From: Octopus vulgaris
Taxonomy: Eukaryota
Direction: 5' to 3'
Assembly: GCA_951406725.2 (NCBI GenBank)
Contig: OX597816.1
Span: 149,172,001-149,236,000 of the forward strand
DNA: 64,000 nt
A program made the position numbers and the translations under genes. The notes beneath the pieces were generated by a model. The model had not been told where the DNA came from. It saw only the letters and a list, made by a program, of their open reading frames with translations, and did not search any database. Positions 25,378-55,135 of this stretch are shown piece by piece (the stretch's first letter is position 1; every line of letters begins with the position of its first letter).

Positions 25378-25473
25378 ATCTATGTATCCACCTGAGGAAT
25401 GGAGAACATTCATTGGTCTGACTGGTAGAGGATCAGGGTGGTCTCGTGTAGGTCCATTGCCACCAACAAAATG
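25378..25473 (-). CDS. Shared internal exon S: C-terminal half of THAP domain (32 aa)
   Basis: Not in ORF track. Acceptor attttctttcactccag|, 96 nt encoding HFVGGNGPTRDHPDPLPVRPMNVLHSSGGYID, donor GAT|GTAAGT; phase 0/0; closely matches V4 HFIGKNGPTPEHPDPIP. Confidence 0.9.
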
Positions 25474-26444
25474 CTGGAGTGAAAGAAAATAAGATTTGAT
25501 ATTAGAACATAAGGTAATATGTTAGGTTTCAAAAATTTATCAGAATATATAAAGAAATTTTAGAATGAAGCATCATGGAAATAATAAGTAGTCAATTGAG
25601 ACATACACCTACCCACTACTAGATGTAGAGTATTCGTGCTATATTACTTGCAAACTAAACTTTGTGTGTCTGTGAGTTGACTACTTCCATTATCTGAAGC
25701 TTCATGTTAAAATTTCATCACAGAAAATCAACGTCCAATGTTGCCTTAAAATTAAAAAAAATCTATGGAACTATGAAGTTATTTGATTATCAGTTTCCCT
25801 GGAGGTCATTTGTGGCTGCCACTTAACAGGTCAAAACTGAACTGGTGCCACTAGCAGTTAATTCCTGGTGTACAGCACACTCAGATATAAAACAGTGCTG
25901 TTGGTAATTAATTAGTTAAGACAAGCAAATAGTGAAAGTAATACAGTAATAAAATTAAATAAGGATTATTATTATTATAACGCCCTTTTGTTGATATTAG
26001 CATTGGATTCTATATACAACCACTTATTGCCCTATTCTTTTAAGATCTGTTGACATGGTGCTATTTGAAATCGCATATTTCTTACTGCATTTTACTGTGG
26101 TATGGAAATATCTAGCAAACAACACATTTTCATCCAGCATTTATTGTTCACATTACCACCCTTACATATATTTCAGCTCTTTAATGCCCTACTTCAGTTC
26201 ATTGGCACTTCTGCTTTTCATGCAAGTAGAACATTATTCAACAAACCCCATCAGAACTTTTCCACATTCACTGTTCTATGGCTACCACACACATTAACAT
26301 ATACTCCATGCAATCTACTTTTATTGTAAATACAGAAAGTATAATTTTAGCATGTAAGTTATATGCATTTTATTTTTGAAATTTCTATTAAGAATTTACT
26401 TTAAGAGTGCATAATGACATCTCTCACCCAAACAACCCAGCTAC

Positions 26445-26580
26445 AAAGAAATGCTTACCAACCACATGGTTTGGGTTCAGTCCCACTGCGTGGCACCTTG
26501 GGCAAGTGTCTGCTATAGCCTTGGGCTGACCAAAGCCTTGTGAGCGGATTTGGTAGATGGAAACTGAAAGCAGCCCGTCG

Positions 26581-26617
<37 letters not shown>

Positions 26618-26812
26618 TTGTGTACACGTTTGTTCCTCCACCATCACTTGACAACCGATGCTGGTGTGTTTACGTCCCCGTAACTTAGCGGTTCGGTAAA
26701 AAGAAACCAATACAATAAGTACTAGGCTTACAAAGAATAAGTCCTGGAGTCAATTTGCTCGACTAAAGGTGGTGCTCCAGCATGACAGCAGTCAAATGAC
26801 AAACAAGTAAAA
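26445..26812 (+). mobile_element. tRNA-derived SINE (octopus-type), 5' slightly decayed
   Basis: Close copy of 36207-36598, including B-box GGTTCAGTCCC and internal (TA)n. Confidence 0.85.
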
Positions 26813-28947
26813 GAAAGTCAAGCTGAAAGGTTGTATTAATAAGAGAGAAGGTGGGCATGAGAACCTAGTATCTGGATATGTAGTGTCACGTACCTGCTTA
26901 TACATACACACACACAGGCAATTATGTGAATAAACAAATTGGATGTATCAACTATATTAGTTTGGAAATGAAATATGAAGTATGTATACATGCATAACAA
27001 GAGAAAGCAGAAGATAGATACTTTCAGATAATGAAGTATATATATATATATAGGTCCAAGTTACAGAGTACAAACAACAAAGAAAATTTTAAAAAAGTTT
27101 TTGAAGTCCAACAGCGGGGACTCAGAGATCCATAATATTGTTGGTAGATTTAGTTCATTACAAGCAGCTGTATGGATGCAATTAACATCACTTTACAAGT
27201 TTTATTTTTCAAGCTCAAGATCTAAATCAAGTGCAAAAATTTCTACTACCATAAATGTTCCGGTGTATTACTGAGAAATTTATATAAAGCGAAAAAAAGC
27301 TTCTACGCAAACAATTCTAGACTTGTTATTTAAAAAGAAATCTACATGTCTGTCTAGGAGTGCTTGTTGAATTGGCAATCGTGTCTACAAGTGATGGTGG
27401 CATGAGTCTAGTGCAAGTGAAATTGATTCAGAAAATGATTATAATAATAATATTTTTTATTATAAATGATCTTGATATTCTTTTGACTTTACATAAAATA
27501 TTCTTTACATTCTACTGTTGTTTTATTGCCATTTATCTATCAGTATTATAAATTTTACAGATAAAATATTTTTTTCTGGAAAATTATTGTTCTGCTTTAT
27601 GTGTTTTAGTTTTACAAGCTATCTCTGGGAAAATATTAACTTGTATATCAAGGCATAACTGTATAAATAGACACATGGCCATATGAACAGAGTTAACTTC
27701 ATAATATGTTCTCAGGATCTATTTAAGTGGCAACTTGGGCAAATGTCTTGTACTACAGCTGCAGGTCAACTAATGACTTGTGAGAGAAATTGGAAAATGG
27801 AAACAGTAGGGATGCCTGTTGTGAGTGTGGATGTTTATATTCCTAGTTAACAATATGACATGTTTTCAAAGATCATTGGAATGAAAAAAATACCTGAATT
27901 TAAATCAGGTAATGGTTGGGAACTGGAAGAGTTGAGTTAATAAAAAAAAAATTGCTCCAGTCCTTAATAGAATCCATTGAATCTGATTATATGCGTTTGT
28001 TTAACCCTAAGTCATGACTGGGTGTCCCATGTCCTCCATACATTCTTAAAATGGTAGGGTGTGATTTGAAAGAACATCTGCTATTTAATTAGTTAAGCCA
28101 AGCAACTAACTGCACAGAGCTCCTTGTTTAGCCCCAAGTCATGTTTGGTCGGATTGATCAATGATGAAAGACAGGTTGTCTGTTTTTATTTCATCAGGTA
28201 TTGATTCCAAGAGTTGATGAACCTGATCACAAGTGTAACTTCAAAGTCAGATTTCACTGTCAATCTTTTCTTTGTAAGCATAAGTTTTAAGCTCTATATA
28301 TATATTTAGAATTGTTTCAGTTAACGTTTGAACGTCTTGCTAAGTCATTATGTGCCAGAAGACATGACTAGATGTACACACACACACAACAATAATATAT
28401 AAATACGTACGAAATATGTATGTGTGCATATACTGTTCTAACAGTCGATAATAGAAAGTGGAACCCTTCTTATTTTGGAATAAATCCATGGGCAGTTTAA
28501 TATTTAATTCAATGTTATTGTGTACATAAGTATTTGTGCATTCTAATCCACATTGCTGGAAAAGTATAAACATTGAAATTTTTTTTTAAGAAACATAATT
28601 CTTGAAAAAAATGCTTTAGTAGTAAAAAGTTCGAATAACGATTTCTGATGTATAACAAAGCATGTGGATAACATCTACCTTTCCCTTCACTGTTTTCTTT
28701 TTGACAAACTCAAGACGACCTTTTTAAAGTAAGCTATCATCAGATACGTAATACATGCCATCGAATTATTTTTGAAATATATCATAGAAGATAACAAAAA
28801 AGTCCATACATTGCAAATGAAGAAAATTAAACAGATTTAAGTTAATTTAGAATTAAGTAGCCTTTAAAGATGTAATGAATGTAATAAACAAGTTTGATAC
28901 AATGATATTATATATATATTATATATGTGTATGTGTGAATTACTTAC

Positions 28948-29124
28948 TAAGAAGGAATAACAAGGTTTTTTATAATGACGAGCGAGTGTGGCTTTAGGGA
29001 TTGCGAACTTCTTAGCAGCTTTTCTAATACTGAGACTTCCAGACAGTACTGCTGATACGGCAGAAACCATCTGGCTAGATGACCACTTCCCATTGTCTGT
29101 TTTCCGGACATACGACTGAACCAT
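28948..29124 (-). CDS. Variable exon V11: pipsqueak-type (psq) HTH
   Basis: ATG 29124; MVQSYVRKT....W....M..AV.AV..G.LSIRKAAKKFAIPKATL.RH; donor TTA|GTAAGT, phase 0. Confidence 0.85.
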
Positions 29125-30080
29125 AATTGACTTCCAAAATTTCCAACAACAAATTTCTTCAGTAAGCCACTTTACACTGAACAACTCAATCTTTTTATCA
29201 TACTATACTTAGAAATAGCATTCGTTACCTTTCCATTTAATTTTATTAATACAGCAATCGATTTCATACGAAGTGCGGTAAAAACTATTTACAATAGTAT
29301 TTTTACACTAAGCATTCTTCGATTCTTAAGTATGGAATACTAATAAAAATAAATACAAGAAAACGAACGCAAATTCTTTAACTATTTATTTTCTCCGCAG
29401 GGCCTTAATGTTTGTTTACAGACACGTCAGACGTGATCGAATAACGAATTTTTTTTAACAATCAGTCTTTTAAGAGGATCATATCTTCAATATAAGCACA
29501 GAAAACTGTTAAGTTTTAGTTACATTAGAAGATCTGACCATATAATAGATATGTTGACAATATAAAAATACAAGCCCCGCATTAGGTGAAATCGTCGATT
29601 TTCAGAGTGTCTCTATGAAACAGACAGTCGGCCATTTTGTAAATCACAATTAAATAAACAACGTAACGTTTCCTTTGAGTATCTGACATGAATTCTTCCA
29701 GATAAATTCACAAATCCAATAATATACATTAAAAAAAAAAACTAGTTCTAAATATATAAAAAAAAAGCAAATGAAATATTAAAAACTACGAAACACAGAC
29801 AACCGCCACCGTGTCATCCACAGAGAAGACTTCCATAATAACGTTAAAGATTCTCGCGAGAATTTGCCGAGATGTTGCAAAGCAACAAACTACTATTGAG
29901 AAAACATTGAAAGTTCAAGGAGGAGGGGAAGAGAGCCTGGCCACTCGATTTCGATTCTAATTTGGAGTCATTTTACTTTCATCTATGTTAATAACAACCT
30001 AAAAATGTTCCAGCCTATTCCTAATTTTTCTCTTAAAGAACAGTTTAGATAGAAATAGGAAGAAATATAAAAAGGTTAGT

Positions 30081-30880
30081 GAGTGTGGGCGCACGAAAAA
30101 GTAGCCTGGATTCAGTAGCGTAGTGTATATAGAGAATTGATTTTACTCGCTTGTTCTTGTCATCCACTTTTAATTGCTGTACACATGTGAAATGAGTTGG
30201 ATCCAACTTTAGACTTTTCAACACCCGCTGGCATGTCCTCCTGCTTATGTGAGACTCCTGCGCCAATTTACGTGTTGACTTGTTTGGACTTCGAGTAATC
30301 CTTCGGCGAACCTCCTGAATAACTTCCGGCGTTCGAACTGTAGGGTCTCTTGGTTTGGGGGCGTTGTGCACTGACCCCGTAGCGCGCCACTTCTTAACCA
30401 ACATTTGTATCGTTCTTTTTGCCGGTAAGCCTTTACCCGGAAACTTAACTTCAAAAATTTCACGCGTTTGCTTAACAGAACCCGTTCTCACATACGTTTT
30501 CACAATCTCCATCCTTTCTGCTATTGAGTACGTCATTTTGCAGAAAAAAACCCAGAGATGTCAACTCAACGCAACCATACAATCAACTAATGTGGTGGGG
30601 ATAACGTAGCAAACAGTCGACTAGTACGCCATCTTTGATCAGCAGTTACACGCGGTCGAAATAACACAATGACACATGCAAACGAAAGGCCGAATGCTTT
30701 TTTTGCTTGGGTAAATTTATTTCTGTATTCACACTATGCTACGGAACCCAGGCTAATTTTTCAGTCGAAATAACACAACGGCACTTGCAAACGAAAAACG
30801 ATATTTTTCACATGTTTTATTTTATTTTTGTATTTACACTACGCTACAAAATCCGGGCTACTTTTTCGTGCTCCATCCTG
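30081..30880 (-). mobile_element. Internally deleted mariner/Tc1-like element containing V12
   Basis: Imperfect TIRs: gcacgaaaaagtagcctggattcagtagcgtagtgta (30091-30127) vs tacactacgctacaaaatccgggctactttttcgtgc (30835-30871); ~108-bp direct duplication 30655-30762 / 30764-30868. Confidence 0.8.
30147..30536 (-). CDS. Variable exon V12: mariner-like transposase N-terminal HTH (DUF4817-like) domains
   Basis: MTYSIAERMEIVKTY..TGS....F..KFP....P....I..LVKKW..TGSV......R..TVRTPE.I..V...I.RSP.KSTR.LA....IS...C.R.LK; no DDD; donor CGA|GTAAAA, phase 0 (weaker site). Confidence 0.75.
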
Positions 30881-33472
30881 AGTTAGTGGGTGTGTGCGTG
30901 CAAGCAGACTGCAAGGTGATCTTTGTCTCATGTTCTGATTCTGCCAATCTAACACCATGGATTAATGTTTTACCGATATGAGAAATATGAAAAGCAGGTA
31001 CAAAAGCTGAACTCAAAGGGATTTCAAGTTCAGGATGGAATGATGCAATCCCTAGATGACAAAGTTTCCAACAGTTTTTGATGGTCAGATTCTTTCAAAA
31101 CATGAAAGACTCAGAAAAACATCTTCAAAATGAGGTGGGTGTTGTAGTATGAATTTACCAGATTTGTTTGTAAATAGAGCATGTCGTTTCTATGCATACA
31201 TAGTCAACCACTTAACCACGCATCTGTTTAAGTTTTAACTAATACCCTGTGAATATGGTAGTTGGAAACTGCAGAAGTGTGTTGTGCAGTATCTCTGTTG
31301 TCTGTCTTTAAGTTGGCATTGCTTAAAGAAAAATTGGTACCATTTATGTCCTGTTTCCGTTCACTAAATTTTATCACACTGTGGCCGTAGCAGAAGCTAG
31401 TGAATTGAACTTCTTGTTAACATAGCCACATCGCTGTCTAGAGTGCATAGTCATTGTCATCAGATGACGGTGAGCAACCAAAACTGCGAAGTCACAATGG
31501 ATAGATGAGTGTTTTAAGATGAGGAGAGAGTGCAAGGTAGAGTACACACATCACACATAAACTTGTATTAAGAAGTTTGCTTCCCAACCAAGTGATTTAG
31601 GGGTTCAGTCCCACTGCATGGTGCTTTGGGCAAGTGTCATCCTGTGCCTTTATGAGTGGATCTGGCAGAGAAACTGATGGAAGGCTGTCAAATGTGCGTT
31701 TTCATGTCTGTCTTGATATCGCAAAACACCATCATATAATGGTGCTATTCGTTTTTACAGATTAGTGAAAACATGTCTAGGTATGGGAAAATATTACCTT
31801 GCTTGTAAAACAGGAAGTTGGTGACTGGAAGAGCATCCAGTCACAGAAAATCAACTGCAATAATTTGTCTGACCTATGCAAGTATGGAAAAGTTGGACAA
31901 AAAAATGACATAGTTACTTAATAACTGTTTCATTCAGTTCTGCATTTAAGTTTCATAGGCAAAGACATTCCATTTCATCGGTTTGAAGAGTGGAAAGAAT
32001 TTAAAAGACAATGGTTTCTAAGTGTATAGAATTCTATTGGTCAGATTAAACCATGTGGTTAGTTTTGCTCTCATACAGGTAACAGTTATTTTATTGTTAG
32101 GTCCACTTGATGAAGCAGACAAGATGTTGGTGTAAATTTGTACGCATTCTGCAGGGTAACAAATTCAGAGACATCAGCTCTCTACCATGGATACTGAATG
32201 TGATAGGGTGTAGACAATTAGTCACTATTCTGTAGGATAGGGTATTTTAGTGACAATAGTTATGCTGAGGGTGGTCAGTAACCAATTTGATGGTGTTGGG
32301 TCATAGATATATTCAAATGACCAACATAATTAAGCAGCAATCTCTACATGTAGCAGGGTAGGATGCTAGCGAGACCTAGGGTGGTATATCTCATTATTAG
32401 AAGCTATAGGTTTGAAGCTCATTAACAATGTATGTCCACTAGCAACAATAAGATAGGTAGGTAATTTTTCCTTTTGACAAATACAGTAGGCTGGTAGAGG
32501 GGTTTGCATGTTCTCATGAAGAGAAAGCAGCTAGCAATTATCATATGCAAGTGTGCTTGTATGTGAATGTAACTACACACATACTGTTGGTGATTTCTTT
32601 TACTTCTTTGGACCTTTCCCTGTATATCATGTGTGTATTGTTCCCCGTTTATCATATGTGTGTATTGTTCATTTTAAGGTCTGTTTTCCATGCTAGCATG
32701 AGTTAGACATGGTGTTATTCGAGGCAGGATATCATAGCCAGATGTTTTTTTCTTTTTGCTAAACTGTAACTTATTTCAAGGAAGGGCTCTTTTTCAGGTT
32801 TTCAAATGCACAGTGTCAGGCAATAATATAAACTGTCATAAACATTTATGTGCATGGGTTTCCTGTAATTTTTCATTCAAATTCATTCACAAGGCCTGGA
32901 ACTATAGCAAAGCCACTCAAAGTGCTATTTAAACACAAGACTAAACCATAATAATACCACTTGGTTGTGGGTGTATGATCATATTGTGTATGGCCTTAAT
33001 CAGCCATGTAGACCAATTTATATCTAAGACAGGTAGTTCAGTATATAATCTATATTATATAATATATATATTATACAAGAAAAATATTTAGTGCACTTAG
33101 CTAATGAGTATACATGTAAATGTTTATTGCTATGTTCTGTTTGTGACTGAGTTTTGTGAGTTAATTTCAAAGATGGATTCCAAGATTAAGATTCAATATC
33201 CATGTTATGCCTCAGAGCCATACCTACTATTGGTATTATGTCAGGAATAAATATTAGTATTATATAGTTAAAACTACATTCCAGAAACCCTAAACTACAT
33301 CTAATTACAATGCTGTTATAATTTCTGAAAGCCTTCAAACATCATAATACACTAATTTAACCCTTTAGTGTTCAAATTATTGTCAAATGTAATTGCTTAT
33401 TCATTTACATTTCTTTGAATCAATCATGAATTATTTCATAGCTTTGAGATTTTGAAGATATGATTGCATATA

Positions 33473-34622
33473 CAGTGTGTGAGGGTTGTTTGAGGACATT
33501 TCACTTTTAGCTCATTACACCTTCAAATTATTTAATGTATCACCCCCCTCCCTCAGATAACCCTTTCAAAATATGCTAACTCAAGGAATGAAAAGACACA
33601 CAGTCATAGTTGCTATATATGCAATCCACAATGATTTAGAAATCAGTAATTTTCTCACAAATGTTGCAAGATCATTTGTACACAAAGTTAGGTTGAAATT
33701 GAAGGCATGTGATAATAATGTTTCACCTGTATCAAAAAGAAAAAAAACATTCACAACGCTCAGACACTAAAAGGACACTGGAAATTATACATGTTCAAAA
33801 CATTATCTATGAAAATCCCAAAAGATCAATGAGGTCCATTGCTTAAAAACTTTGAGTGTCAGAGTGGACTATAAGAACTATGGTACATTGTGACACTCAA
33901 TACAAAGAAATACCAATTTGTCTGCGAAGACACCAGAAAACTGTCTCATCCGTTCAAAACGGTTACTTGAAAAACCCTCATGAATTTTCTAATGGAAAAA
34001 GAAAAAAAACAACCCAACTTTGACCAGGTGGTTATGTGCAGATCCTTCTGAAATACCCAGAGTGATGCACACGAAAATCATGTGATGCCTCCCCACATTT
34101 TTTCCACAGGGTCTTAGAATTAAAGCTGCTGGATACATTGAGGTACTGGAAACTTATCAAGCCCTGGATTGATGAAGTATGCAATGGAAGGATATACATG
34201 TTTTAACAAGACTCAGCACCTTCTCACAAAGTACTAGTCACTCATGAATGGTTGTCAGACAATTTTTATGATTATGTAACACCCAATATGTGGCCTCCAA
34301 ACTTGCCAAATTTGAACCCTATGGACTACATGTGGAGCACTGTTGAAAGGGAGACTAATTATCATCCTCATAATACCAGAGCTTCACTGAAGGCTGCCAC
34401 TGTCCAGGTCATGTCCGAAATGAATTAGAACCATATAATATCAGGATACCAGCAGCTTCGATTCCGCATTGAAGTTGAAGGTGGCTTCACAGAATAATTT
34501 GCATAAAAAATCATTACCAAGATTAATTGCACAAATGTTTATTCAAATACACATTTAGTTATGCTGAAATATAGTTGTTTTATTGTATACCAAAACTGTC
34601 CTCAAATACCTCTCACACCCTG
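33473..34622 (+). mobile_element. Decayed DD37D (maT-type) Tc1/mariner DNA transposon
   Basis: TA-flanked TIRs CAGTGTGTGAGGGTTGTTTGAGGACA / TGTCCTCAAATACCTCTCACACCCTG; broken transposase from 33573 with QDSAPSHK...WPPNLPNLNPMDY (37 residues between the two Asp). Confidence 0.88.
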
Positions 34623-36206
34623 TATTTCGATTGATATTGTACAGTAGGTGTGAGAAACCATATCTAGCTGGTTTGAACATAAAACAGGTAGAATATTTGG
34701 GTTGGATATGGCTGGTTTAAATGCTGAAGAGTTAAACACACACACACACACGTATACTTCAACATTTACTATACATAATAGATTGAGGCAAAAAGGCACT
34801 CAGTGGAACTGGACATAAAGTTACATATGTGAAGTGAACTTCCTAACCTCACAGACATGGCTATGCATGTATATGTTCTGCTAAGCTTACAATTACTGCA
34901 TCTTCCACACCATGACATGTCTGTCTATCTGTAATTTTTCTTGTAAAATACGAGCAAGATGCTATTTCCTGATCCATCTAGACGGACTGCACCTCAGATA
35001 TATGTATGTGTATATATAGAAGCCTACATGTTGGGGTAATGTTTTAACATCATCTATTCTCCTGTCACTTATTACAACACAAAGTGACATGGTGTACAGT
35101 ACCTCTCACTACACGCAACAGCAATCTACAGAGTGTATTTTTTGGTGAACTAATACTAGAGAGGTTTAAGGCAATAACAAGGGTTCACTCAACCCTATGA
35201 TGTCTTGTTTGTTTGCTTACTGTACTGGGTGAAATTGGAGAGATAGTGCTAGTGAAGTAATGGAAGCAGAAGTACCTCCTCCTGACAAAGTTGAACTACA
35301 CCTCAACTAGCCTAATCCTCTTCTAAATCAGTTTTGCAATACCCCTTACTGTAACTTTAAAAACCAGGTCCAAAAGCTCAATACTGTAGTTTTATTGTTC
35401 TAGAACATCTCTTTGCCTCTGTATCAATTTATGGCAGCAGGGTTGGGTGAGTAATAAAGAGTAGAGTACATAGGAGTCATGACTACTACAGAAATGTAGA
35501 TAATTAGTTGTGCTCTGAGTGTTCATGCAGGAGTACATGATAGCTGTATGTTATATTTAGACATAATATCAAACAGTTTTATTTTTACATCTGCTTTTTC
35601 ATGCATACATAAGTTAACTAGTCCTCTCCACTTGTGTCATTTTATCATCAGCTTTCTCCCCTTGGGTTGCTTGGTACATCTAACCAACTTACCCATACAT
35701 GTCTGTACCAAACCAGTTGTCTCTCTTGTACATTACATCTGATTCTTCTTATATCCAGATTTTCTCTTTTTCATTTCTCTCCCTTCAATGTTCTCATGCA
35801 GTTGACTTTTTTTTGAAGAGAATCTCTTTGTTGCCAGTAAAAGCAATGACTCCTTGAACCGTTTTACTCTATTATGCACTCAGAGTACAAATGAAAACCA
35901 TTTCTCATAATCTCATCTCCCATGAAGACACCAATCTTCTTTCATATCTTGGTCCATAGAGTCTGAAACGCCTATAATTGGTTCTTTCTAAAAGTATTTC
36001 CTTTGCCCGTGTAGTATTTGACAATTATACTGTCATGTTAATCATTGTGTACAACAACTCTTTGTGTTATTAGGTTGACTATGCAAGTCCTATTTGAGAT
36101 ATTTTTAGCATCTCAACAACTATTTCTGATGGACCTGTCTTCATATCCTTAATGACTATTTTAACTCTATACCTTGCCCACTTCAATTACATATTTTTGT
36201 TTAATT

Positions 36207-36598
36207 CAGGAGTGGCTGTGTGGTAAGTAGCTTGCTAACCAACCACATGGTTCCGGGTTCAGTCCCACTGCGTGGCATCTTGGGCAAGTGTCTTCTACTA
36301 TAGCCCCGGGCCGACCAATGCCTTGTGAGTAGATTTGGTAGACGGAAACTGAAAGAAGCCTGTCGTATATATGTATGTGTGTGTGTGTTTGTGCGTCTGT
36401 GTTTGTTCCCTTAGCATTGCTTGACAACCGATGCTGGTGTGTTTACGTCCCCGTTACTTAGCGGTTCGGCATAAGAGACCGATAGAATAAGTACTGGGCT
36501 TACAAAAAGAATAAGTCCCGGGGTCAAGTTGCTCGACTAAAGGCGGTGCTCCAGCATGGCCGCAGTCAAATGACTGAAACAAGTAAATGAGTAAATGA
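36207..36598 (+). mobile_element. Full-length tRNA-derived SINE (octopus-type)
   Basis: A-box TGGCTGTGTGG, B-box GGTTCAGTCCC, internal microsatellite, tail aaatgactgaaacaagtaa; further copies at ~19210-19350(-), 20330-20470(-), 26445, 31565, 44340-44530(-) and 50555-50860. Confidence 0.88.
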
Positions 36599-39094: not shown

Positions 39095-40020
39095 GGCGAG
39101 CTGACTGCAGGGAGGGGAGAGAGCTCAGTAACAAGAGTTAGAGGCAAGGGGAGAGCACAACCGACAACTACAACATACATAACTAATGCTACTAAATACC
39201 ATCGTCACTACAGCTAATTTAAACGCAAGACTTCTGGATGGAGCTGCCAACCGTTTCATGGTTTTATTAGTTGAACAGAAGCGCATGAGCACATTAACCA
39301 ACGAGAAAAGAAAGGACGTAAGTAATGAAATCAACAGTCAGATAAAGACGACTTTTGGATTCCACAATAATACTAAAGAAAAAAAAAACCTACACTGAAC
39401 GGTTTGAAAAAGTAAGGAAATTTACACTCAGTAAACTTTATTGCATTTGGTTATTTACCTTTCAAAACATATTCACAACTAAATCAGCTTAATAGTCCTA
39501 CCCAGCTCCCAAACGAAAACGTCATTTCATTACTACTACTACTATATATATTTTGTGGTTCATGGCAATAAAAGTTTAATATGATTTTAATGACTTATAC
39601 GCGCACATTTCTGCCCTTTATTGACACGACCAGTTTTAGATTGATTACGGATTTATTTCTGATAAATATCTACGATATGAAAACGAACCCAAAACAGTTA
39701 CGTCCACTTGACAGCTGAAAATATAAAATCTTCCCTCCCCCCGCCAAAGGGGTGGGATGCATGTTGTACACCTCCATCAATTATTATATTGAAGCATCCA
39801 GAAATGTATATTTCTGAATAAAGAACGTTGCAACAAAGACTTTACATGAAGATAGAAAAGGGCAATTATAAAATAGCACATTCACATCATGCACACACTA
39901 GGACCAAATTAAGATTTAATGAGAAATTCCAAATTGCTAAAATCTATTCTCAGTATTTGTTCTATAATTATTTAAGCATTTTATTTATTCATATGAAATA
40001 ATTATACTTGTTTCCCTTAC

Positions 40021-40380
40021 TCCGGTCTTAATCGCTGAAACCACCCTTTGCTGACCATAAATGTTTTAGTGCTATCTTGACTCTTCATATTCAGGCAAAT
40101 AAGGACTTCACTCACTCTGTTCAGAATGACCGCCTGCAAAACAGGGACGTTATTATCATCGTCAAGCCAGGGCACTAATAATTTTTCCAGTTTTTTCCCC
40201 ACAGTCTCATCTACTACAAGGGTTTGGTGCACCATGCATTTGTTTCTGCGTGTACACTTTTTTTTAAATGTTGTTCATCATTGTCGATACAATAGAAGGT
40301 CTAGACTCGACGCCTAACAGACAATCGGCAGAAGAATTATTTTCTCAACTGTATTTTACATTCTAGTCTTCCCAAACGCA
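40021..40380 (-). pseudogene. Degenerate CENP-B/Tigger-type HTH variable exon (pseudo-exon)
   Basis: LEKLLVPWLDD...FMVSKGWFQR resembles the V7/Tigger second HTH; upstream frames have stops and shifts; GTAAGG donor at 40020 is out of phase by one base. Confidence 0.55.
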
Positions 40381-42640: not shown

Positions 42641-42847
42641 CTTTGAACAGACGTAAAGGTTTTTGTTTCCGTCAACAATGTTAACGTTCAGTTGCTCGGG
42701 AATTCGACCGCAACGTTCAATCCAACGAAGACATTTGTCTCGTTGTCTCCGCGGTTTCGGAAACGGTATGAATGTAACACCACCGAACAGACGTTCAGGA
42801 TAACGATCGTCTGTATTACACAAACCCCATGCACAACGCTTCACCAT
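42641..42847 (-). CDS. Variable exon V15: N-terminal half-THAP
   Basis: MVKRCAWGLCNTDDRYPERL.GGV.FIPFPKP....KCLRWI..CGR...YVCSK; donor AAG|GTAAAT, phase 0. Confidence 0.88.
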
Positions 42848-43124
42848 TACACTATTCTTAACCGACTAGGCAACAGAAAAAGCTTGACTGACTAAAATGG
42901 CTGACATGACAGAACAAGAGGGGTGTGATGATAAGTCGAAGAATCTGATTGGTTGAAATGGGTGACACAGATTGTTGGAGGTCACAACATGAATAAGCCG
43001 TTTGCGCTGAAAGGTTATGAATCTTGAAGAAAATTTAGATAAATGTGAACCTCTCTAACTTGCGCCAATAAAGTATACTTTTAAATGGACACTCCACTGC
43101 TCTGAGCTGAAGACAAATTGAGTA

Positions 43125-43265
43125 ATTTCTGGGCAGGAGGTAAGTCACATCGACCCCAGTGCTCAACTGGTATTGTTTTTATCGACTCCTAAAGGATGAA
43201 AGGCAAAGTCGGCCTCAGAACGAGAAGACGGACGAATTGCGCTAAGCATTTCGCCTGGCGTGCTA
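43125..43265 (-). mobile_element. CORE-type SINE fragment
   Basis: catcgaccccagtgctcaactggt...aaaggatgaaaggcaaagtcggcctc, homologous to 15850-15992. Confidence 0.7.
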
Positions 43266-44898: not shown

Positions 44899-46056
44899 CT
44901 GGTCCTTCTCAGAATCATTCCGTATCAATGTTACCTGCAGGTCCAGAGAACCATCACCAGAATTATCAATAACCTGAGCATTCGTTGAGCTAGCTAAAGG
45001 CGTTGCACCAGAGTTTGAAGAATGATTTGATTCACCCTCTAAGATTTTACGCTCGAGACGAGAATCTTTAGCATACGGCAAAGTAAAATTGTAACCCCCA
45101 GATAAAACGGTCTTATTGGAACCAGTTATTCTAATGGAATGGTTGCTGTACTTTTGTGAGAGTGAACAGGCAAGACTAAGTTCAGGCATAAACCTTTGTA
45201 AAGTATTTCGACCTACAGCAATGTTTCGATACCAGACTGAGCCTTCGGGCGAATAAGGAGATATCGGTCTTTGCCATAATCGGTGGCAAAGCGGATGGAG
45301 TTTGCTCTTATATTTTTCAAATGATTTCACAGGACAGTTTGGATCATTGGGCCTTTCAACGATATATGTTAATTCTTCAATGTCAATTGTAGACGGACCT
45401 GTTGCTTGGATGTTAGAACCAGAGCACACTGATACGGTCTTGGTCTTCAAACTGCGTGGGGACTGTTCTTCAGCTTTACACATATACTTATACCCGGTCT
45501 GCGAATCAACGCGGACTTGGAAAGTCTTTTTAGTCATCTCTACCATACTCTGGGGACCTTTTCGGAAGAAATATAACCGGATCTCAAATTGAACTTTATT
45601 CAGTAAGCCTAAAGGTGTATTGATGTCAAAATAAACAGATGAATATAACTTCTCTAAATCTTCATCCAAAATAATAGGATGATGGGTCACTTCACCTTTA
45701 CCACTAGTTTTCAGCTCATTAACAGTTTCTTTAAAATGAGCGTTAGCTTCTTCAAATATTTCATCTTTAATGAGATCAAATGTTTTGAGATACGGTGGAA
45801 GCCGAAAGTATCGGTTAAGTGCATATCGGAAGCCTTCCAAACTGGTCACCTTATACTGATCACCATCACGCTTTCGTACATCTCGGTAAAATAATATCAG
45901 CAGCTCACTCAGTTCTTTGGCGTCCAAAGATTCGAAATCTGTGGATAAACTCTTATCTTTTAAATAATCCCGTAAAGCACGAGCCGCTTTTTCATTGGCA
46001 CGCCTTGTATTTTTAGGTACGGCCTTATGTTGCCCATCAACAGCAAAAGTATCCAT
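44899..46056 (-). CDS. Variable exon V16: Crypton-derived tyrosine-recombinase-fold (DUF3504-like) domain
   Basis: FY.DVRKRDG..Y...SL..FRYALNRY, TP.GLLNKVQF...LYF.R.G, CPVKSFEKY.SKLHP....LWQRP, WY....VG.NTL..FM..LS......YSNHSIR; two phase-0 donors, CAG|GTAACA (exon end 44935) and CAG|GTAGGT (exon end 44899). Confidence 0.88.
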
Positions 46057-47081
46057 ACTGTCAAGTTAGTTACGTACATTCAAAGACAAGTGCAATATAC
46101 CAGCAGTTATAGTTGATTGGCATAATAAGTAGTGAGGTTATTGTGCGGCAATATGCATGTTTTGTTTAATATTTTAAAATCTAGTTTCTAACAGGTCTCG
46201 TATATTTCATCCCCAGCCAAATTACAATTAGTAACACTAACAATATTTCAAATGTATGAGTAGCAAGATATATATATCATAGAGTGGGAAACTAATGGAA
46301 ATAAAGGATATCTCAAAACAGACTCACGTAAGAGGCACGAAAACGTCAAGCGAATGCTGAGAATTAGTAAACTACGTGACGTCAAAAATTATTTTTATCA
46401 ACACTCTACTTCGTTTGCGCTAGCAATGACTAGTGTATGATTTAGAAAGTACTCGTAAGTAATTCATTTGCTATGATATCATTACGATTTTACCTCGGAA
46501 CAGATTATAATTCGCTGAAATTCTCAAAACTTTTCCTTACAGTGTGTCCTAAGATAAAATATTTAAAACAAAAGCTAAAATGCTACTGCACTACTTGACT
46601 GAAATTTATCCGCACTGTTGTTGTGTGACGTCACGGTCAGTCTTATGGCAGGTTGGCTGACGTGTGCCAGAGGCGGTTTGGCTGCGTGAAGCAAGCAGCA
46701 GAGGGTCTGTATAAGTATCTAGACAAGAACAGTAGTGTAGAGAAGGAAAATAACTTTTAATGGGGTTTATTTAATATTATCGTTGCCATCTACATGAAAT
46801 ATGAATAGATCTTGTCAACAGCTAAAACAATGAACACACATCTCCCAACAAATTACATGTTATTAAAATTATGTATATTCAATTTTAAACGACGAAGTGC
46901 GTTTTCAATATAAAAAAGGCTATCATATAAAGAAAAAAAAATTACCGTTTCATTTCTATACCATATTCTATTTTGAAAAATAACGGCAGTGAATCGAGTT
47001 CAATTTGTGTGAAGAAAATTGCTTGCGTTTTTCTATCTGAAAACAGTTCCAACTGTTACTCGTAATAAATAGAGATGAACA

Positions 47082-47087
<6 letters not shown>

Positions 47088-47162
<75 letters not shown>
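47088..47162. repeat. (TA)n microsatellite
   Basis: Interrupted TA dinucleotide run. Confidence 0.9.
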
Positions 47163-47245
47163 ATAAATATGTATGTGTGTGTGTTTGTAAAAAAAAAATC
47201 CGAAAGAAGAAGCGAACTCTAAGATGTAGAACAGTATATATATAT

Positions 47246-47406
47246 ATATTAAAAATGGGGAAGATCGGTTTATGGGATTACCACAGGTTTCCCGTCCATA
47301 AAGGATTTAGCTGGTTTTGCTATCTAACGATACATCATAAAGCTAAACCCTTTATGGGCGGGAAACCCAAGGTAATCCCATAAGCCAGGCCTCCCCATTT
47401 TAATAT
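47246..47406. repeat. Foldback / MITE-like long inverted repeat
   Basis: ~66-bp arms atattaaaaatggggaag...ccataaaggatttagct and agctaaaccctttatgg...ctccccattttaatat around a ~28-bp loop, embedded in TA repeats. Confidence 0.8.
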
Positions 47407-48741
47407 ATACATAATCCGAATTTCGGATAACATACCAACTCTACTAACAGATATACGAGTCATCTTCTCCCCGACTTATGGTCTCTTAGACGACACGTGT
47501 GCGTGTACACACACACGACATGCTAAATCAAATGTGGCTTATGTGTTTACACGTGATACCAAATTATTTGATTTCAATTTCAACGTATAAATCTCGATTT
47601 AGTCAAGAAAATCTGGTATTTGTGATGTTCATGCTTTTATAATAGTATTAAGCAATATAAGTAGACTGTATGGTAGGATTGGCGTTTAACTTATAGAAAT
47701 CCTTGTATATTATATAAATTTTAGAATACGTACAAGAATATTTAACTTACGATTGCAGATATGACTAATAGTATATAATAGACAATACATCATTTTTGAA
47801 AATTTAACTTCAATGAAAGCAATTTCCAAACTTTGCTTAAATTTAATCTAAATAACCAACAACACATTCTGATGCTGGACCTTACGGGTGATTTCAAAGA
47901 GTTTGAAAGTATCAGTTAAGTGTTTCTTAAACAACAAAGCGGTGAGGTAAGTGGGATAGGGGACCAGCATTTTATTGCCTGATTATCAGGACAGAACGTG
48001 TTTAAACACAGCAACAAATGTGAGGAGTTTTGGAATGTGGTTGTAGAATTAGAATAAGCTGAGCAAGGTCAGATATAAAAGGCTTACAGCTGTTATGGTG
48101 TGACCTAAGGAAAAAATAAAAGTAGAAACCTCCAAGTTCGTGTGTGTGCATGTAGGTGGGTGGGCACTCAGTAGAATTTAGTTAACAAATGGTTATAACA
48201 TTTCATTGAATCTATTTCATTACACAAATTATTGTACTCATTTAATAGTAAAGAAAAAATAAATACCCATACAAAGTATCCTCAAACTGGAGACCTGGCT
48301 AAATGCTTTGCAACAGGGTGGGATACTATTAAGCTACCCAAGGTGTCAGGTGGTGGCAATGAACAAGGCACTGGATTAAGTCTCCCACCTAAGTAGGCTA
48401 CAGCAGGATTTGAACTAAAAACTCAATGAGATAAGACAAGAACTATAAGGCATCTATTGTTATGTTCTTACAGATTTGACAATTCCATAGTCACCCTCAA
48501 AAAGATGAAAGGCAAAACTGACCTCTGGAATTTTAAGTCAGTGTGTGACATGGCTGAACAAATACAGCAAGACTATCTGATGCTCTAATGACTACAAATA
48601 TGTATCAGTTCACAAGCAAATTTTTAAATTAGCAAGGCCCAAACGGAGCATGGAAACAACCTCAGTCACCCAAACATTAATTTAACCAAATTAATATGGC
48701 ACTGATATTACAAGTTTAATCACACACACATATAAATGAGA

Positions 48742-48943
48742 GAGTGCTGAAAAGTGCCTGATTCTTAGGGTATCATGAAAGACCTGGTTGGAGGCTCGAC
48801 ATTCCAAATTATTTTACAGGGCTTAGAAAAACTGAAGAATTGCTGCAATAAGTGTGTGAATCTGAGAGAGGAATATGTTCAATAGAAACATAACTGATCC
48901 TCCTTATTTTCCTTTACCCAAAGCCAGGAACTTTTCAGCAGTA
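48742..48943 (+). mobile_element. Short mariner remnant
   Basis: GLEKLKNCCNKCVNLREEYVQ* resembles a mariner C-terminus; decayed TIRs tgctgaaaagtgcctg / ccaggaacttttcagca. Confidence 0.55.
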
Positions 48944-50554
48944 CACACACACATTGCTTTTAACATCCACTTTTTAATGGAATTCATTGAGACAAATTGT
49001 CAATGGTTGAATGCCCTTCTTGTGGCTAACCCTCACCTGTTTCCAAGCAAAGCAATATTTCCATATGGATGGACATGTTATCACAGAAAATTGGAAATGA
49101 ACAACACTTGTAAGACAGTTTACATTCATTTATAAATATTGTGTGATGTTAAGGCAAAAAGATACAAACACACTCATGCATGGGTTTGGTTGGCTTGGGG
49201 GTTATAATAGAAAATAGTAGCCCAAGGTGCTGCACTGTGTGACTGACCCAGAAACCATGGCATTGGGAAGTCAGCTTCTTAGTAGCAGAGCCATGCTGGC
49301 ACACAAATATATTTGAATGTACATACACACAAAGATGCACTTAACCATCATACATATGTACATTTACAAGTATACATTTTAAATTGTTTTAGTCAGGAGA
49401 AAATCCGGTGCTCAAAACCTTGCACAGGGCCACTGTGAATAGAGAAAAGGGAAGAGGAAGGCATCCTTAAATTAGAGAACAGACTCGAATGCTTGCGACA
49501 GATGGATTCTGCCGAAGGTGCAAGGTAGTGTTAATAAGAATAAAATTAAAATATTGATTTTTTTTGTTGTTGCAGTATCATGTCAGAGCTCTAAAATACA
49601 AATCTAAGGGTGGGGGGAAACGTAAGAGCCCCAAAAAAGGAAATCGAGTGGGTGTAAGAAATATAAACAATTTTTTTTTGGGGGGGGGCACCTTCCCACC
49701 TCAAACTGGAGAATTGCAATCTTCCTCTATTCCACAGGATTACAAGACACACACGTGGAGTGAGGGGGGGGGAGATACTTTTAAGAAAATAAGCAAAAGA
49801 TAAAAAATACACGGAGAGTGTTTTGAAGCCCGCTAAATAAATATCCATGGTTATAACCGGGTTCCTCTGTATTAAGAAAAAGAATGTGATGTTTTTATTT
49901 TAGCTGGAATTTCTGTTCCATAAAGCGTTTATGCTATATACATACGCCATAAACTCTACATGACTATTTTCTTAAATGACACAAGCATAATAAATATGCG
50001 TAACATGACTAATGTTATACTGACGGCATATGCAGTTCAATAAATTTCACTGAGAGTATGTATAGTCGATTAAAGTAACTAGTGCAAAACTGATATCTTA
50101 TTTTTATCGATTTCGCATCCCACCTCTCTCAAGTATCAGATGATGCTCGGGAGGTGTACTTGGCTATCATACACATTTTTAGAGGGGAATACCAACATTC
50201 CTTCAAGCACAGTACAAACTGTGGGAGTCGTGCATACTTCATTTAATTACTGCATTGTTCTTTCTTCTTTACTACCTGTTTGCGATCTTTTAGTTCAAAT
50301 CTAAAATTTTTACAGTGGTCGTAACCTCTAGTACGTAAACTTAACTTATTAAGGAATGAACTCAGAAAATGCAGTAAGATAGTTTCAAGAGAAATGTACT
50401 GTTTCTGCTGTATTAATATGAGAATGTAACAGTAACAATGTGTATAAAATATTTCCCATAAGTTACTCACACATTTTAAACAAAGGCGCGATCGATTGGA
50501 TAAAATCCAGCAATTTATATGGCAGTTAATTTATCGACGAAGTTTTCGATTCGC

Positions 50555-50860
50555 AACCACGTGGCTTCAGGTTCAATCCCACTGCACGACACCTTAGGTG
50601 AGTGTCTTCCACAACACCAGATCGACCAATGTTAATGCCTGGTGAATGAATTTAATAGGCAGAAATTGTGAAAACTCGTCTTACGTGTAATAGTGTGCAT
50701 TTACGTATTGAACAGACTCCCACTGCTTATCGGTCCGGCAAAAGAGACCGAGAGAATAAGTATCTAATTTTAAAAAAGCACTGGAGTCGAATTGTTCGAC
50801 TGACCCGTCAAGACGGTGCTCCAGCATGGTCGCAGTTCAATGACTGAAACAAGAAAAAGA
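50555..50860 (+). mobile_element. tRNA-derived SINE, diverged copy
   Basis: aaccacgtggcttcaggttcaatcccactgc...ggtgctccagcatggtcgcagttcaatgactgaaacaag, homologous to 36207-36598. Confidence 0.8.
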
Positions 50861-50943
50861 ATAAGATAATACTGTGATTATAACCAACAAAATTAATAAT
50901 AATAATGATCATAATAATGAACAATAGTAAAGGTAAGCCTTAC

Positions 50944-51294
50944 AGTAATCCGTTTGTCATCCTCATTAGTCTGTTTTTGTGGTAAAGATCCTTTAGTTTG
51001 AAAAAGAGTTGGTATTGCACCAGGTTTCAATTTCATTCGTGGTAATTTGCAGCGGTAGCCGACCTCCAAATACCGACTTTCGAAATGGCGCGTACAGATT
51101 CGAATCTTGCACCGTATTTTTGCAATGTTTGAACATGTCATATCAAGAAAATTCTCCATCTGGCCAGAGTCAATACCCAGATTCTGGGCCCAGATCCGAC
51201 ATTTTTCTCGGTCCTTCGGAAAACAATGCAACCGAATATGACGAGGTAATCGACCGTCGTGGCTGGTGCAACCAAATGCTATACAATGTGGCAT
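50944..51294 (-). CDS. Variable exon V17: complete THAP domain
   Basis: MPHCIAFGC...LHCFPKD......W...ICTRHF...LKPGAIPTLF; donor ACT|GTAAGG, phase 0. Confidence 0.88.
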
Positions 51295-54200
51295 GTGTTA
51301 ATTCAAATTAGATGAAGGACAGTAAAGAGCAAATTTAAAAGTAAAAATTTTTAATGTTTATTTTGGAGAGTATGTATAAAAATTTGAATAGCTCCGTAAC
51401 ATTGAGTGAAGGTAAATTTAAAAAGATCAGGTTATATTTTTTACTGTCTCGTATCAACAAACGAGTATAATGCTGAAATTCAACAGTGAAACGCGGTGAT
51501 TCTACGGAATAAATGGAAACGTAAGGTAACTTAAGGCGTCTATGAAATAGGTGATGCACGCGCGTATTCAGAAATACATACGAGCCTATATAGTAGGTGT
51601 GTGTCCGTCTAGGTTCACTGGATTAGGATAATTACCATTTTAAAATTTTAAAGTGTTTAAGAAAATTGATTTAAAGCATCAAAGACATATGGTCACTGAA
51701 AAGCGGAACAGTGAATGAATAAAAACTAGAGAGAGAGAGTGAGTGAGTGAGCGAGCGAGCGAGCGAGGGAGAGAGAGAGATAGTAGTCTAACAGCTTAAC
51801 AATTGCGACCCAGTGTTGAGTCGGTGAATATGATTCATTGGGTCATATATGGCACATAACTTTTATTTGCACCAATAGGAAGAGCGTGTTGCTAAGAAAC
51901 AGCGAAAAAGATAGAAAGAAACGAATAAACGACACGGAAGAACAGAGATATATAAATAGAAAACAACTTAAATCCAATTTCGATATCATATTTTAATTTC
52001 TTAACCCACGATTTGACATACTTCAACAATAACAATAAATTCACCACAAAAGAAATTCATTTTTCGTTTCGAAGAAGGAAGAGTAGAAAGTCTTTTATAA
52101 TTTCATTTACATCTAAGACTATATTATAGGAATATAAATGGATCTTAGTACTTGACTTAATGTTTTTTTCTCGACCCCCGGATTTTCACTTAGAACGTAG
52201 CTAAATACTCTTAATAAGTTCGACACAAATGATTTTGCAATCTACCATTATTGATAGAAAATTAGGTTCATAGCTTTCTGCATGTATTAGTCAATATATG
52301 TACAAACCGAGCTCAATTCAATCCAACTCATAAACATGCTGAGCAATGTCAAAAGAACAAATGCCAAGATTCACATTTAAGTTTAGAGAGTAGCCCCACC
52401 ATCCCTCATTAAAAATCCACGGACATTTACGGAAATTTTTCTAAAATTTACGAATATTAAAACTTGGTTATCAACTCAACTTTTCAAGCAGTTAACACTG
52501 AATTACACCATTCACTTACGATTTATTTTACCAAACACCAAATCTATAAACTTTGTGGGAGCGAATGCAAATTAGTATTTCCCCCAAAACCTTTAATGCA
52601 GAAACGCATAAACTACCATTAAATGTTCAAACCGATGTCACCTCTATATGTTAAAAGTTTATCGACTGTTCATAGAATATTTGCATCCAAATTTCAAAGA
52701 GAGCCATAATCATAATTTATACGGTCTGAGACAGTTCTTATTTGTTGTTACCACTACATGAATTGGTGAACATCACACCTTTGACATGGATATGGTCTCT
52801 GCAACTGGATGTTCTCGTTAACACCATTCACCCCACATTTACAAAGTGCTTGAGGGCACCTTGTACTCACATCAGAAGAGAGATTGTGATGGCCTTGACA
52901 GGCACAAAGGCTTCTTTTCATCGAATGTCGTCTGGTCATTTGTCAACCACTTAACAGAGTTTTAATGCAGTGAAAGAAGTCACCTTGTTTTTGCACGATT
53001 AAAGTGTCCTCTCTATTCAATGTTGTTTTCGTTCTTTCAAAACAAACGTGACTGAGGGGGTAAATAGAATAACGAGATGATCAAGAAGATAAGAAGATTA
53101 CATGAATGTGACAGAGGAAAACAATGAGCGTACGGTAAAGGAGAGAGTACTGAAAAAGAGACTAAGAATATATATGTATATATAGCATCATTAGAGTCAA
53201 ACGCTAGAAATCCAAAAACTTTCCGTCTCTGCTGATGACACCATTCAACCCATTACACAAGTGACTGCGTTAACACTGTTGGTGTGGGAATTTGCAGAAA
53301 AATAATAGTTAGCATCGATGATTCATTAAAATGTTTAGGTGAGCTAAATCATAAATGTAAAACTTCATGGATTCTACTAAATACTCATATCATTTGAGCA
53401 ATTTTTTTTTTACACACTCGGAGCATTCGGAACATGCTGTATTTACAGAATTACAAATTACATTAAATTAATATATATATTTTTCTACACAAGTTAAGCA
53501 ATTCTAAACTGCAAGTCAAGTGAAATTAATACAACCGGAAATATAAAAATAAGCTTGCTTATGCAGTCATTTCACTTAGGACTTGTTTACATTCAGATAT
53601 TCTGCAAACTATCAGGAAATACATAGTTTTTGGCTAGGCACTCAAAAGTAAAGTGATTACGGTACAGGGTTACAAACAGTGCTAAAGTAAAAAAAAAAAA
53701 AGCCAGAAACATCACTAAATGCAACAGTCATATGGAAACCCGTTTTCTGTGGAAGGATTAGTTAAGAATAAATAACTGCAAATTACCAAGTCTACATACA
53801 CAAGTTAATTTAAAACACCCACCCCCAATCTTCAGATATATATCAGTGAAGAAAAGTACATTTTCTTAAAACTGTTGTGATATTCATAGATTTTTAAGAA
53901 TGCTGTAAGAAAATCAATGGGCCATAGACTAGATTTGTTACGAGCTTATCACTTTGTGATGCTCAAGATTGAATATAAAAATTTGCTAGACAAAACAGCT
54001 GGATGGAAAGGACACTCTAACCAGTTCAAAAGAAAGAGTTGTATATATTTCATTATAATCGCAACATGAAACTAGCTGTAAAGGTGTATAATTTGATGAA
54101 GTTTGGTATTAAAGAAAGTCTTTATGTAAGATCCAACTGAATCTGATAAAGTTGATGAATGAGCCTTGTGCAGTGTTCTATTGCAAAAAAAGATGTTAAA

Positions 54201-54934
54201 ACTGACTAGGATAATTTACCTACTTCACTAAAACCAATGAAGCTTTTGTTGATACCAACAAAAATGTTATTTCTATTACGGCTTGTCTACTGAACTAGTG
54301 AAGATGGTTAAGCAGGATATAGTCAATACATTCTGATTAATATCTATTACCAAAGGCCAACAAAAATTCTCGCTGTCAATCTTAGGCTCTACTAATAATG
54401 AATATCATGAACACATGGGAAGCAAATATATTGACTTATTTACCTATTTTAAAAAACTAAAATGAATGATCATGAGTTGCTCCTGAATATTTTACGATAA
54501 ACAAAAATGAAAGCTTGTATATCAAAATAAAATAAAAAGCTCTCAAGTAGACATCAAACTAAAATAATCAACTATAGATTTGATATTGATGACATGAGAG
54601 GAATATTCATTGTATTACTTTGAAATTAAAAAGGAAATTAAGTAAAAACTCGTGTTTACTGCTTTTAAAGTAAAGCTTGTGTGTAGTAATGTAAGATGTA
54701 CAATATCGCATGAACAAACATTCACTTTGAATAATGTAATATTTTGCATGTTTAGATAAGTAACATAATACATAATTTGAACTGTGTGTGTAAGTTCGCG
54801 TTCTCACTCGAATACATAGGCACACAAACATATCTCGACTTGCTAGAGACATTAGTTTTCAAATTAGGATAAAGGCAAACATTAAAAAAAAACAACAACC
54901 TGAGATACAGTTCATAAAAATGATAAAATTATAC

Positions 54935-55135
54935 CTTGGTACAAATATATGTTGCTCTGCTGATGCGATTAACGTTGAATTGATAGGAAGGTCTACCACA
55001 GCACAGAATCCATCGTAGACATTTCTCTAGGTTTTGTTTGGGCTTCGGAAAAGGTATGAACTGAACACCGCCCGCCAACCTCTCGGGAAATCTATTGTCA
55101 GTGTTACATGTACCATAACAACACCGTTTAACCAT
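54935..55135 (-). CDS. Variable exon V18: N-terminal half-THAP
   Basis: MVKRCCYGTCNTDNRFPERLAGGVQFIPFPKP..NLEKCLRWI..CGRP...YICTK; donor AAG|GTATAA, phase 0. Confidence 0.87.

Follow-up and report, generated by a model that had tools for sequence, protein, structure and literature searches.

How is a zinc finger completed when the exon that encodes it stops one residue before the last zinc ligand? The question is raised by a 64,000-nucleotide stretch of the Octopus vulgaris genome (assembly GCA_951406725.2, contig OX597816.1, positions 149,172,001 to 149,236,000), hereafter the window, which carries the constant exons of a BTB gene and, upstream of them on the same minus strand, four exons (V13, V14, V15 and V18) that encode the first half of a C2CH THAP domain. 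The four exons end in C-[ST]-K followed by GT, immediately before the THAP histidine, at the coordinates given in the initial annotation. All donors are in phase 0, namely 38897 AAG/GTAAGG in V13, 41123 AAG/GTAAGC in V14, 42641 AAG/GTAAAT in V15 and 54935 AAG/GTATAA in V18 (the slash marks the exon border), and the reading frames stop 1–7 codons inside the intron (VRIDRAE, VSWN, VNNSGF and V, respectively, each followed by a stop codon). The histidine is encoded by a lone 96-nt exon of phase 0/0, S1 (25473-25378), which begins with HF and is translated as HFVGGNGPTRDHPDPLPVRPMNVLHSSGGYID. Its CAG acceptor and GTAAGT donor (CAG/CATTTT...GAT/GTAAGT) are also as annotated. Acceptor 1585 of the first constant exon, C1, is in phase 0. 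The implied introns measure 13.4, 15.6, 17.2 and 29.5 kb between the halves and S1, and 23.8 kb between S1 and 1585. V4, an intronless THAP exon of the same locus, is 48% identical to the spliced V15 form over 86 residues. We thus confirm that four half exons face one shared second half.

The predicted joins occur in public gene-model protein records, which belong to one cluster from a related assembly, 15 of whose 32 members are listed. P0049, P0048 and P0052 consist of V13, V14 and V15, respectively, each followed by S1 and the constant part, and the joins are exactly those predicted. P0048 maps to 41329-41123, P0049 to 39094-38897 and P0052 to 42847-42641; all three then continue to 25473-25378 and to 1585. 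The V13, V14 and V15 halves match the records of the other assembly at 66/66, 69/69 and 68/69 residues, and P0152 features an identical V13 half within different flanks. Among long proteins, the V15 half retrieves 24 cluster representatives, none of which is a joined octopus form, as the joined forms are cluster members. From the gene models we infer transcript support for the joined records, because they keep single variable exons across long introns, unlike the concatenated model P0064. The arrangement first proposed, a variable half, a shared half and a constant BTB part, stands for V13, V14 and V15 and is a prediction for V18. That the halves are spliced to S1 is very likely; V18 is probably spliced to it as well.

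Splicing yields a THAP domain that is recognizable by sequence. Against Pfam PF05485 (gathering threshold 23.9 bits), the spliced records score 27.1, 25.8 and 27.6 bits and all three pass, whereas none of the four halves passes alone (19.5 bits, none, 22.0 bits, none). Across an alignment of 48 rows, residues C5, C10, C67, H70, P30, W42 and F71 show no variation or a conservation of at least 90%, H70 and F71 being supplied by S1, and the C-C-C-H ligand set plus the conserved P, W and F is complete in the spliced product. The first 109 residues of P0052 were modelled with AlphaFold2 from the 48-row alignment; the model has a predicted local distance difference test score (pLDDT) of 86-96 through residue 90, spanning the join at 69/70. 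A model of a half alone (pLDDT 49) was made without an alignment; it is not a fair control and was not used. In a structural search with the P0052 model, the top four of six matches are THAP domains, and their alignments cover residue ranges from 1-87 to 2-92. The C-terminal AVPTIF box of THAP domains is replaced in S1 by PDPLP, as in free transposases of the same subfamily; this is a subfamily trait and not an effect of the splice. In the THAP1–DNA structure, as described in PMC2879526, the beta-sheet lies in the major groove and loop L4 in the minor groove; on this basis, the four chimeras would vary the recognition strands on a fixed C-terminal loop. The loop, derived from S1, has few basic residues.

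S1 is the only free second half at the locus. Searched with a profile of the THAP C-terminal half based on 17 outside homologues, 264 kb yield a single stand-alone match, at 25473 (independent E-value, iE, 6.6e-6). The two remaining matches with iE <1 sit within intact THAP exons, and the next free match has an iE of 2.3. A scan of the same 264 kb for AG/CAYTTY preceded by a pyrimidine tract gives six sites, of which only 25473 is THAP-like. Neither the profile nor the scan reveals a private HF exon next to any half in this interval. Genome-wide, S1 has two matches, itself and V4, and the V15 half has five, all in this locus. No stored isoform joins a half to 1585 without S1. Direct splicing of this kind would fit the frame, yet it is missing from all 26 records that start upstream of S1.

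The position of the split is inherited from the donor transposon family, in which it is an old intron, and is not a novelty of the locus. Of 100 homologues from databases, 12 are interrupted at the very residue where the half-THAP exons end. Among 57 metagenome loci of the family, many of which come from a few contig sets and are not independent, GT directly follows C-x-x in 18, of which 13 possess their own AG/HF exon 275-2244 nt downstream; 21 are continuous, including eight of the C-S-L-H-F type found in V4, and 18 could not be classed. For instance, L031 is a split THAP locus with a DDE transposase downstream. Elements of the family thus normally have a private second half (13/57), and the octopus locus is unusual in that four first halves share one. 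Many long homologues of the halves carry HTH_Tnp_4 and DDE_Tnp_4 domains (P0018, P0091, P0109, P0121, P0204 and others). ISL2EU (Harbinger-like) transposases combine a DDE transposase with a THAP DNA-binding domain, and ISL2EU proper also features a second open reading frame (ORF) with a YqaJ exonuclease as well as terminal repeats, according to the accessible text of PMC9179366. By THAP plus DDE_Tnp_4, the donor family appears to be of the ISL2EU/Harbinger type; assignment to ISL2EU proper would need the YqaJ ORF and terminal repeats. The homologues share THAP, HTH_Tnp_4 and DDE_Tnp_4 with these transposases, whereas the octopus locus keeps the THAP halves only, with no DDE match in the ORF scan. 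The intron before the histidine, documented here from contigs, is not mentioned in the accessible part of PMC9179366. V4 need not be a processed copy of a spliced half, as intronless C-S-L-H-F elements exist (8/57) and V4 belongs to another clade. Other lineages have captured the THAP subfamily of the halves repeatedly, as fish and limpet records show it joined to C2H2 zinc-finger arrays and a fish record to a forkhead protein (P0005, P0014, P0021, P0092, P0130).

The role of S1 is wider than initially described. It had been read as part of a nested second tier that serves the half-THAP exons, but it is present in all 26 isoforms with a start upstream of it, including 23 that lack any half-THAP exon, and is missing from the seven that begin downstream (33 stored isoforms; the concatenated P0064 was dropped from this count by a length filter). 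S1 is obligatory for upstream variable exons of the DUF3504, Psq, CENP-B, FLYWCH, Brinker and complete THAP types. Two further shared exons obey the same order, S2 (96118-96069; entered in phase 1 and left in phase 0) and S3 (150249-150210; entered in phase 0 and left in phase 1); positions above 64000 or below 1 carry the window numbering on into neighbouring stretches. Each isoform consists of its own variable exon plus every downstream shared exon, and all 33 stored isoforms are in genome order. Phases fit this rule. All five annotated tier-C exons, located between S3 and S2, end in phase 1, as does the best donor of two unannotated tier-C ORFs, matching the phase-1 acceptor of S2, and the annotated exons of the remaining tiers (A, B and D) terminate in phase 0. 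The locus thus has four tiers, not two, spans ~183 kb (182310 to -461, minus strand) and possesses one BTB body, the BTB domain being found at residues 258-364 of 632-635, C-terminal to the variable part. A Pfam scan, which covered 150 out of the 169 filtered ORFs of the minus strand, and tblastn mapping across 464 kb reveal ~32 variable units from 182310 to 2208, all on the minus strand and upstream of the constant exons. These units serve as alternative first coding exons, and most encode DNA-binding domains of transposase type. They belong to at least eight domain families, including THAP, DUF3504, CENP-B/Tc5, Psq, Brinker, FLYWCH and Tc3-type helix-turn-helix (HTH), and 22 different variable coding units appear in records.

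The base composition of the exons bears on where transcripts start. The CpG observed/expected ratio is 0.87-1.71 in the four halves and 0.19, 0.45 and 0 in S1, S2 and S3, and CpG-rich patches near 28 variable exons exceed those at 500 random sites (p=1.6e-7). Molluscs show gene-body methylation; given this, a promoter per unit fits the CpG-rich variable exons and the CpG-poor shared exons. We propose, with a probability of roughly 0.78 for the explanation as a whole, that a transcript starts at one variable unit, probably at its own promoter, and that cis splicing takes each downstream shared exon and then the constant exons, passing over other variable exons. S1 would derive from exon 2 of a THAP-bearing Harbinger/ISL2EU-type transposase, of which it keeps the 5' part up to a donor after 96 nt, and would act as a mere linker in most isoforms. 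For V13, V14, V15 and probably V18, it would supply the His ligand and the C-terminal loop of a C2CH THAP finger, the variable half contributing three Cys residues and both beta-strands and the shared half the rest. One captured second half may have become obligatory and now complete the first halves of unrelated later elements; for a related element landing upstream, retention of the first exon with its natural donor would then suffice to produce a complete finger. The products would bind zinc and DNA and may mix through their BTB domains, as pairing between isoforms is expected from the family.

The same splicing could act on halves produced when a single captured first exon, partnered with S1, was tandemly duplicated within the locus and its copies diverged. 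All five genome matches of the family lie within the locus, the coding exons of V13, V15 and V18 are in part 69-78% identical at the DNA level, and the four halves end at the same codon; the common end, however, is the ancestral donor of the family, and the flanks show no similarity except for one 19-nt match at the V13/V15 donor. The halves are not grouped in a 106-row tree, in which V15 is sister to a Tegillarca (bivalve) transposase (99/93), V14 is sister to P0095 (98/88) and V4 lies elsewhere, each of the three having a closer relative outside the locus. The approximately unbiased (AU) test disfavours a single clade of the four halves (p=0.026; 56 of 106 rows, long branches and near-duplicates being left out), a value that is only modest because the alignment has 70 columns and the subset was chosen after the first tree had been seen. 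In the clade of V15, moreover, the second half differs from S1 in all eight intact cases, being of a shorter HFx[ED]G-xP type, and the V15+S1 finger thus looks chimeric. The term paralogous, as first applied to the four exons in the sense of local duplicates, does not suit halves that fall in different transposase subfamilies. We consider separate captures likely and tandem duplication unlikely, and at least three halves are most likely now joined to a foreign second half. A further reading, in which the half exons are decayed transposon debris and the records with joins reflect noise or modelling artefacts, could appeal to two decayed exon-like remnants in the locus (~106.8 kb and ~40.2 kb) and to joins known from gene-model records alone. 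It is very improbable, since the four frames are open and keep their Cys and Trp residues, the halves are conserved in another assembly as given above, P0152 shows the V13 half in another setting, and no free family copies are left in the genome.

Other mechanisms of joining must be weighed against cis splicing from separate promoters. Long joins could be made by trans-splicing between separately transcribed units, which reportedly occurs in Drosophila lola and mod(mdg4). The introns, 13-29 kb from half to S1 and up to 70 kb from S2 to S1, pass many exons, some of which have acceptors. Nevertheless, all variable exons are found upstream on one strand, and the shared exons follow genome order in every stored isoform, an order that trans-splicing would not require. 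This collinearity points to cis splicing, and we regard trans-splicing as improbable. Slightly less probable still is a single upstream promoter with mutually exclusive internal exons, as in Dscam, although acceptors precede the ATG in V13, V14, V15 and the 182295 exon, and records P0059/P0060 join an upstream exon into a variable exon. Such a model must skip the shared exons for each later variable exon, because tier-A and tier-B isoforms lack the shared exons upstream of them. It also fits poorly with CpG-rich variable exons and CpG-poor shared ones, and with a small leader exon (168198) situated 0.8 kb from its own THAP exon.

Several points weigh against the preferred explanation, in which captured halves with their own promoters are spliced in cis to S1. 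The junctions come from gene-model records alone, and those of three assemblies may not be independent, because some named records bear names transferred from another species. The V18 join is absent among the cluster members listed, and the V18 donor scores 3.1 versus 6.5-10 for most others, on a rough matrix in which some training sites are off by a base. Structural matches to THAP domains are weak (Z 5.3-3.0, root-mean-square deviation 2.9-3.7, 61-77 aligned residues), although the top four are THAP domains in both searches, and Foldseek finds no match to the P0052 model at E <= 0.001 (E >= 0.15). The bootstrap of the 70-column tree has not settled, and the 56 rows of the AU test were picked with that tree in view. 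The units show no shared promoter motif, and no shared 7- or 8-mer stands out. V13, V14 and V15 are probably not literal first exons and are likely to have short leader exons, because candidate acceptors precede their ATG; skipping of these acceptors by upstream transcripts has no explanation in the model. Lastly, although S1 is identical to its Argonauta counterpart at 30/32 residues (S2 at 12/16), a sign of constraint, its conservation is not above that of the BTB exon (86/90) and only slightly above that of C1 (71/79).

Vertebrate clustered protocadherins and UGT1A likewise connect 5' variable exons with distant constant 3' exons; the variable exons of these genes are tandemly arranged paralogues that each encode whole domains and use one constant block. 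The octopus gene resembles them in that its 5' variable exons are numerous, are probably each driven by a promoter of their own and are spliced to common 3' exons. It differs in that its exons are heterogeneous captures arranged in position-dependent tiers with no shared promoter motif; they are not tandem paralogues, as they represent at least eight domain families and the halves are not one clade. In Drosophila mod(mdg4) and lola, a constant N-terminal BTB is combined with many alternative C-terminal DNA-binding exons, including FLYWCH-type fingers. The likeness lies in one constant BTB with many alternative DNA-binding exons, but the order is reversed in octopus, where the BTB lies behind an N-terminal variable part, so the defining feature of these genes is absent. 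Moreover, the octopus variable exons derive from many unrelated families, occur in four tiers and use a shared exon that completes a domain. The accessible text of PMC11426971 reports no TTK-type BTB in molluscs, which suggests that the two systems are convergent.

Mukherjee and Moroz 2023 (PMC10027918) find a BTB/POZ domain in most Octopus THAP and CENPB proteins and, in the accessible text, treat these proteins as expanded families from ‘BTB/POZ transposable elements’. The word isoform is missing from the main text, and the accessible text gives no single-locus, tiered or split-domain reading. The isoforms are already in public annotation; we found neither the locus nor its tiers or shared half-finger described in a literature search that scarcely covered subscription journals, and the supplements of PMC10027918 could list isoforms. 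Cosby et al. 2021 reportedly described host–transposase fusions by exon capture, mostly with one capture per gene. Such fusions likewise splice transposase DNA-binding exons to a host regulatory domain; in octopus a single gene has gathered dozens, and later captures are completed by an exon captured before them.

If the proposed explanation is correct, the locus would illustrate a route from broken transposon pieces to working transcription-factor domains, in which a fold-completing shared exon cheapens each further capture. Counts of cephalopod transcription factors would change, as many ‘THAP-BTB’ or ‘CENPB-BTB genes’ would be isoforms of few multi-tier loci. Four natural chimeras with one C-terminal loop and differing recognition strands would also provide a ready test set for THAP specificity, to be read against the THAP1 structure as described in PMC2879526. 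A broader idea, somewhat less likely than not, is that cephalopod BTB genes are standing traps for transposon DNA-binding exons, that this gene evolved a domain-completing adapter and that capture is ongoing, as the extra THAP of P0059/P0060 would indicate. Under this idea, the chimeric fingers would vary the major-groove reader on a fixed scaffold and be functional at once on arrival, and promoter choice and BTB pairing would produce a combinatorial transcription-factor or insulator code, convergent with mod(mdg4) and lola and shared with cuttlefish.

Features of the window are listed in Table 1.

Table 1. Exons of the BTB locus within the window.
Feature	Positions	Strand	Remarks
V18, half-THAP coding exon, 67 aa, M...CTK	54935..55135	minus	donor AAG/GTATAA weak; 29.5 kb from S1; predicted join
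V15, half-THAP coding exon, 69 aa	42641..42847	minus	candidate acceptor just upstream of ATG; isoform P0052
V14, half-THAP coding exon, 69 aa	41123..41329	minus	candidate acceptor 10 nt before ATG; isoform P0048
V13, half-THAP coding exon, 66 aa	38897..39094	minus	candidate acceptor 10 nt before ATG; isoform P0049
S1, shared exon, phase 0/0	25378..25473	minus	fourth zinc ligand (His) and C-terminal loop; in isoforms of every upstream unit
Tier-B complete THAP exon	63804..64000	minus	start ~64181, beyond window; joined to S1, P0056
Tier-B DUF3504 (Crypton-type) exon	58111..59205	minus	joined to S1, P0026
Tier-B complete THAP exon	50944..51294	minus	joined to S1, P0057
Tier-B DUF3504 exon	44899..46056	minus	joined to S1, P0025
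Tier-B candidate HTH (DUF4817) exon	30048..30536	minus	Pfam match; donor not fixed; no isoform among those listed
Tier-B HTH_psq exon	28948..29124	minus	joined to S1, P0031
Tier A, ten variable exons	2208..18032	minus	direct join to 1585; isoforms for 5/10
Tier-A variable exons	18032, 17016, 15277, 11934, 11219, 10555, 6040, 5249, 3291, 2567	minus	
V4, intronless THAP	5768..6040	minus	same transposase family; C-S-L-H-F type
C1, first constant exon	1350..1585	minus	in all isoforms
C2, constant exon	959..1262	minus	start of BTB domain
C3, constant exon	1..600	minus	remainder of BTB; coding continues ~460 nt beyond window start

Some variable exons show signs of turnover. Decayed CENP-B/Tc5-like remnants occur at window positions 40020-40274 and at ~106600-106900 (~2600-2900 of L009), the latter resembling the intact 101133 exon. 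The exon pairs 139382/130648 and 64181/51294 (THAP, 70% and 61% identical) and 136755/127765 (Brinker-type) look like true local duplicates, in contrast to the half-THAP exons. A second split THAP (125985-125914 and 121308-121039; L011:1914-1985 and L010:7039-7308) breaks elsewhere, after F-H-R, and has a private second exon 4.6 kb off; it is also found in Argonauta (P0030, P0047). Three exons of variable type match no convincing Pfam family, namely a Cys-rich exon at 112911-112462 (L009:8462-8911) whose phase-1 donor fits its tier, the exon at window 2839-3291, present in records (P0046), and that at 17856-18032, a basic helical repeat. The intron between S2 and tier B contains a 319-codon open frame with LERDLEKW-like repeats and no Pfam match (88314-87358; L007:3358-4314). 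The end of C1 (window 1352-1440) encodes a short repeat of the DDRRF/EQRFQ/ERRF type that varies in Argonauta.

The gene belongs to a wider set of BTB genes. Its BTB exon has 22 genome matches, 11 of which lie in tandem within ~210 kb; an ESM Atlas search with the BTB part returned generic BTB matches only. The tandem array (G000:C3:148966743-149173081; L001-L004, L084-L097) consists of 11 minus-strand paralogues, this gene being the first, and several of them possess one or a few N-terminal exons of the FLYWCH, CENP-B or basic repeat type. Five more copies map to C3:151.27-151.38 Mb, and single copies to C2, C14, C15, C23 and C24. The LOC106879774/LOC115220336 locus follows the same logic, as FLYWCH and CENP-B-like ends are joined via a shared segment that a DUF3504-like end bypasses, and in cuttlefish-cluster contigs a THAP or FLYWCH-like end is joined to one BTB body (P0086, P0247). 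In the related assembly, P0059 and P0060 (L016:8095-8325) have an extra THAP spliced before the Psq exon, resulting in two DNA-binding domains. In the present genome this THAP is a dispersed repeat with 23 matches, none of which lies at the locus; this pattern suggests that it was captured recently in a single lineage. Remnants of a mariner-type transposase (HTH_48, Transposase_1) are located inside a neighbouring BTB gene (L003:3575-4239).

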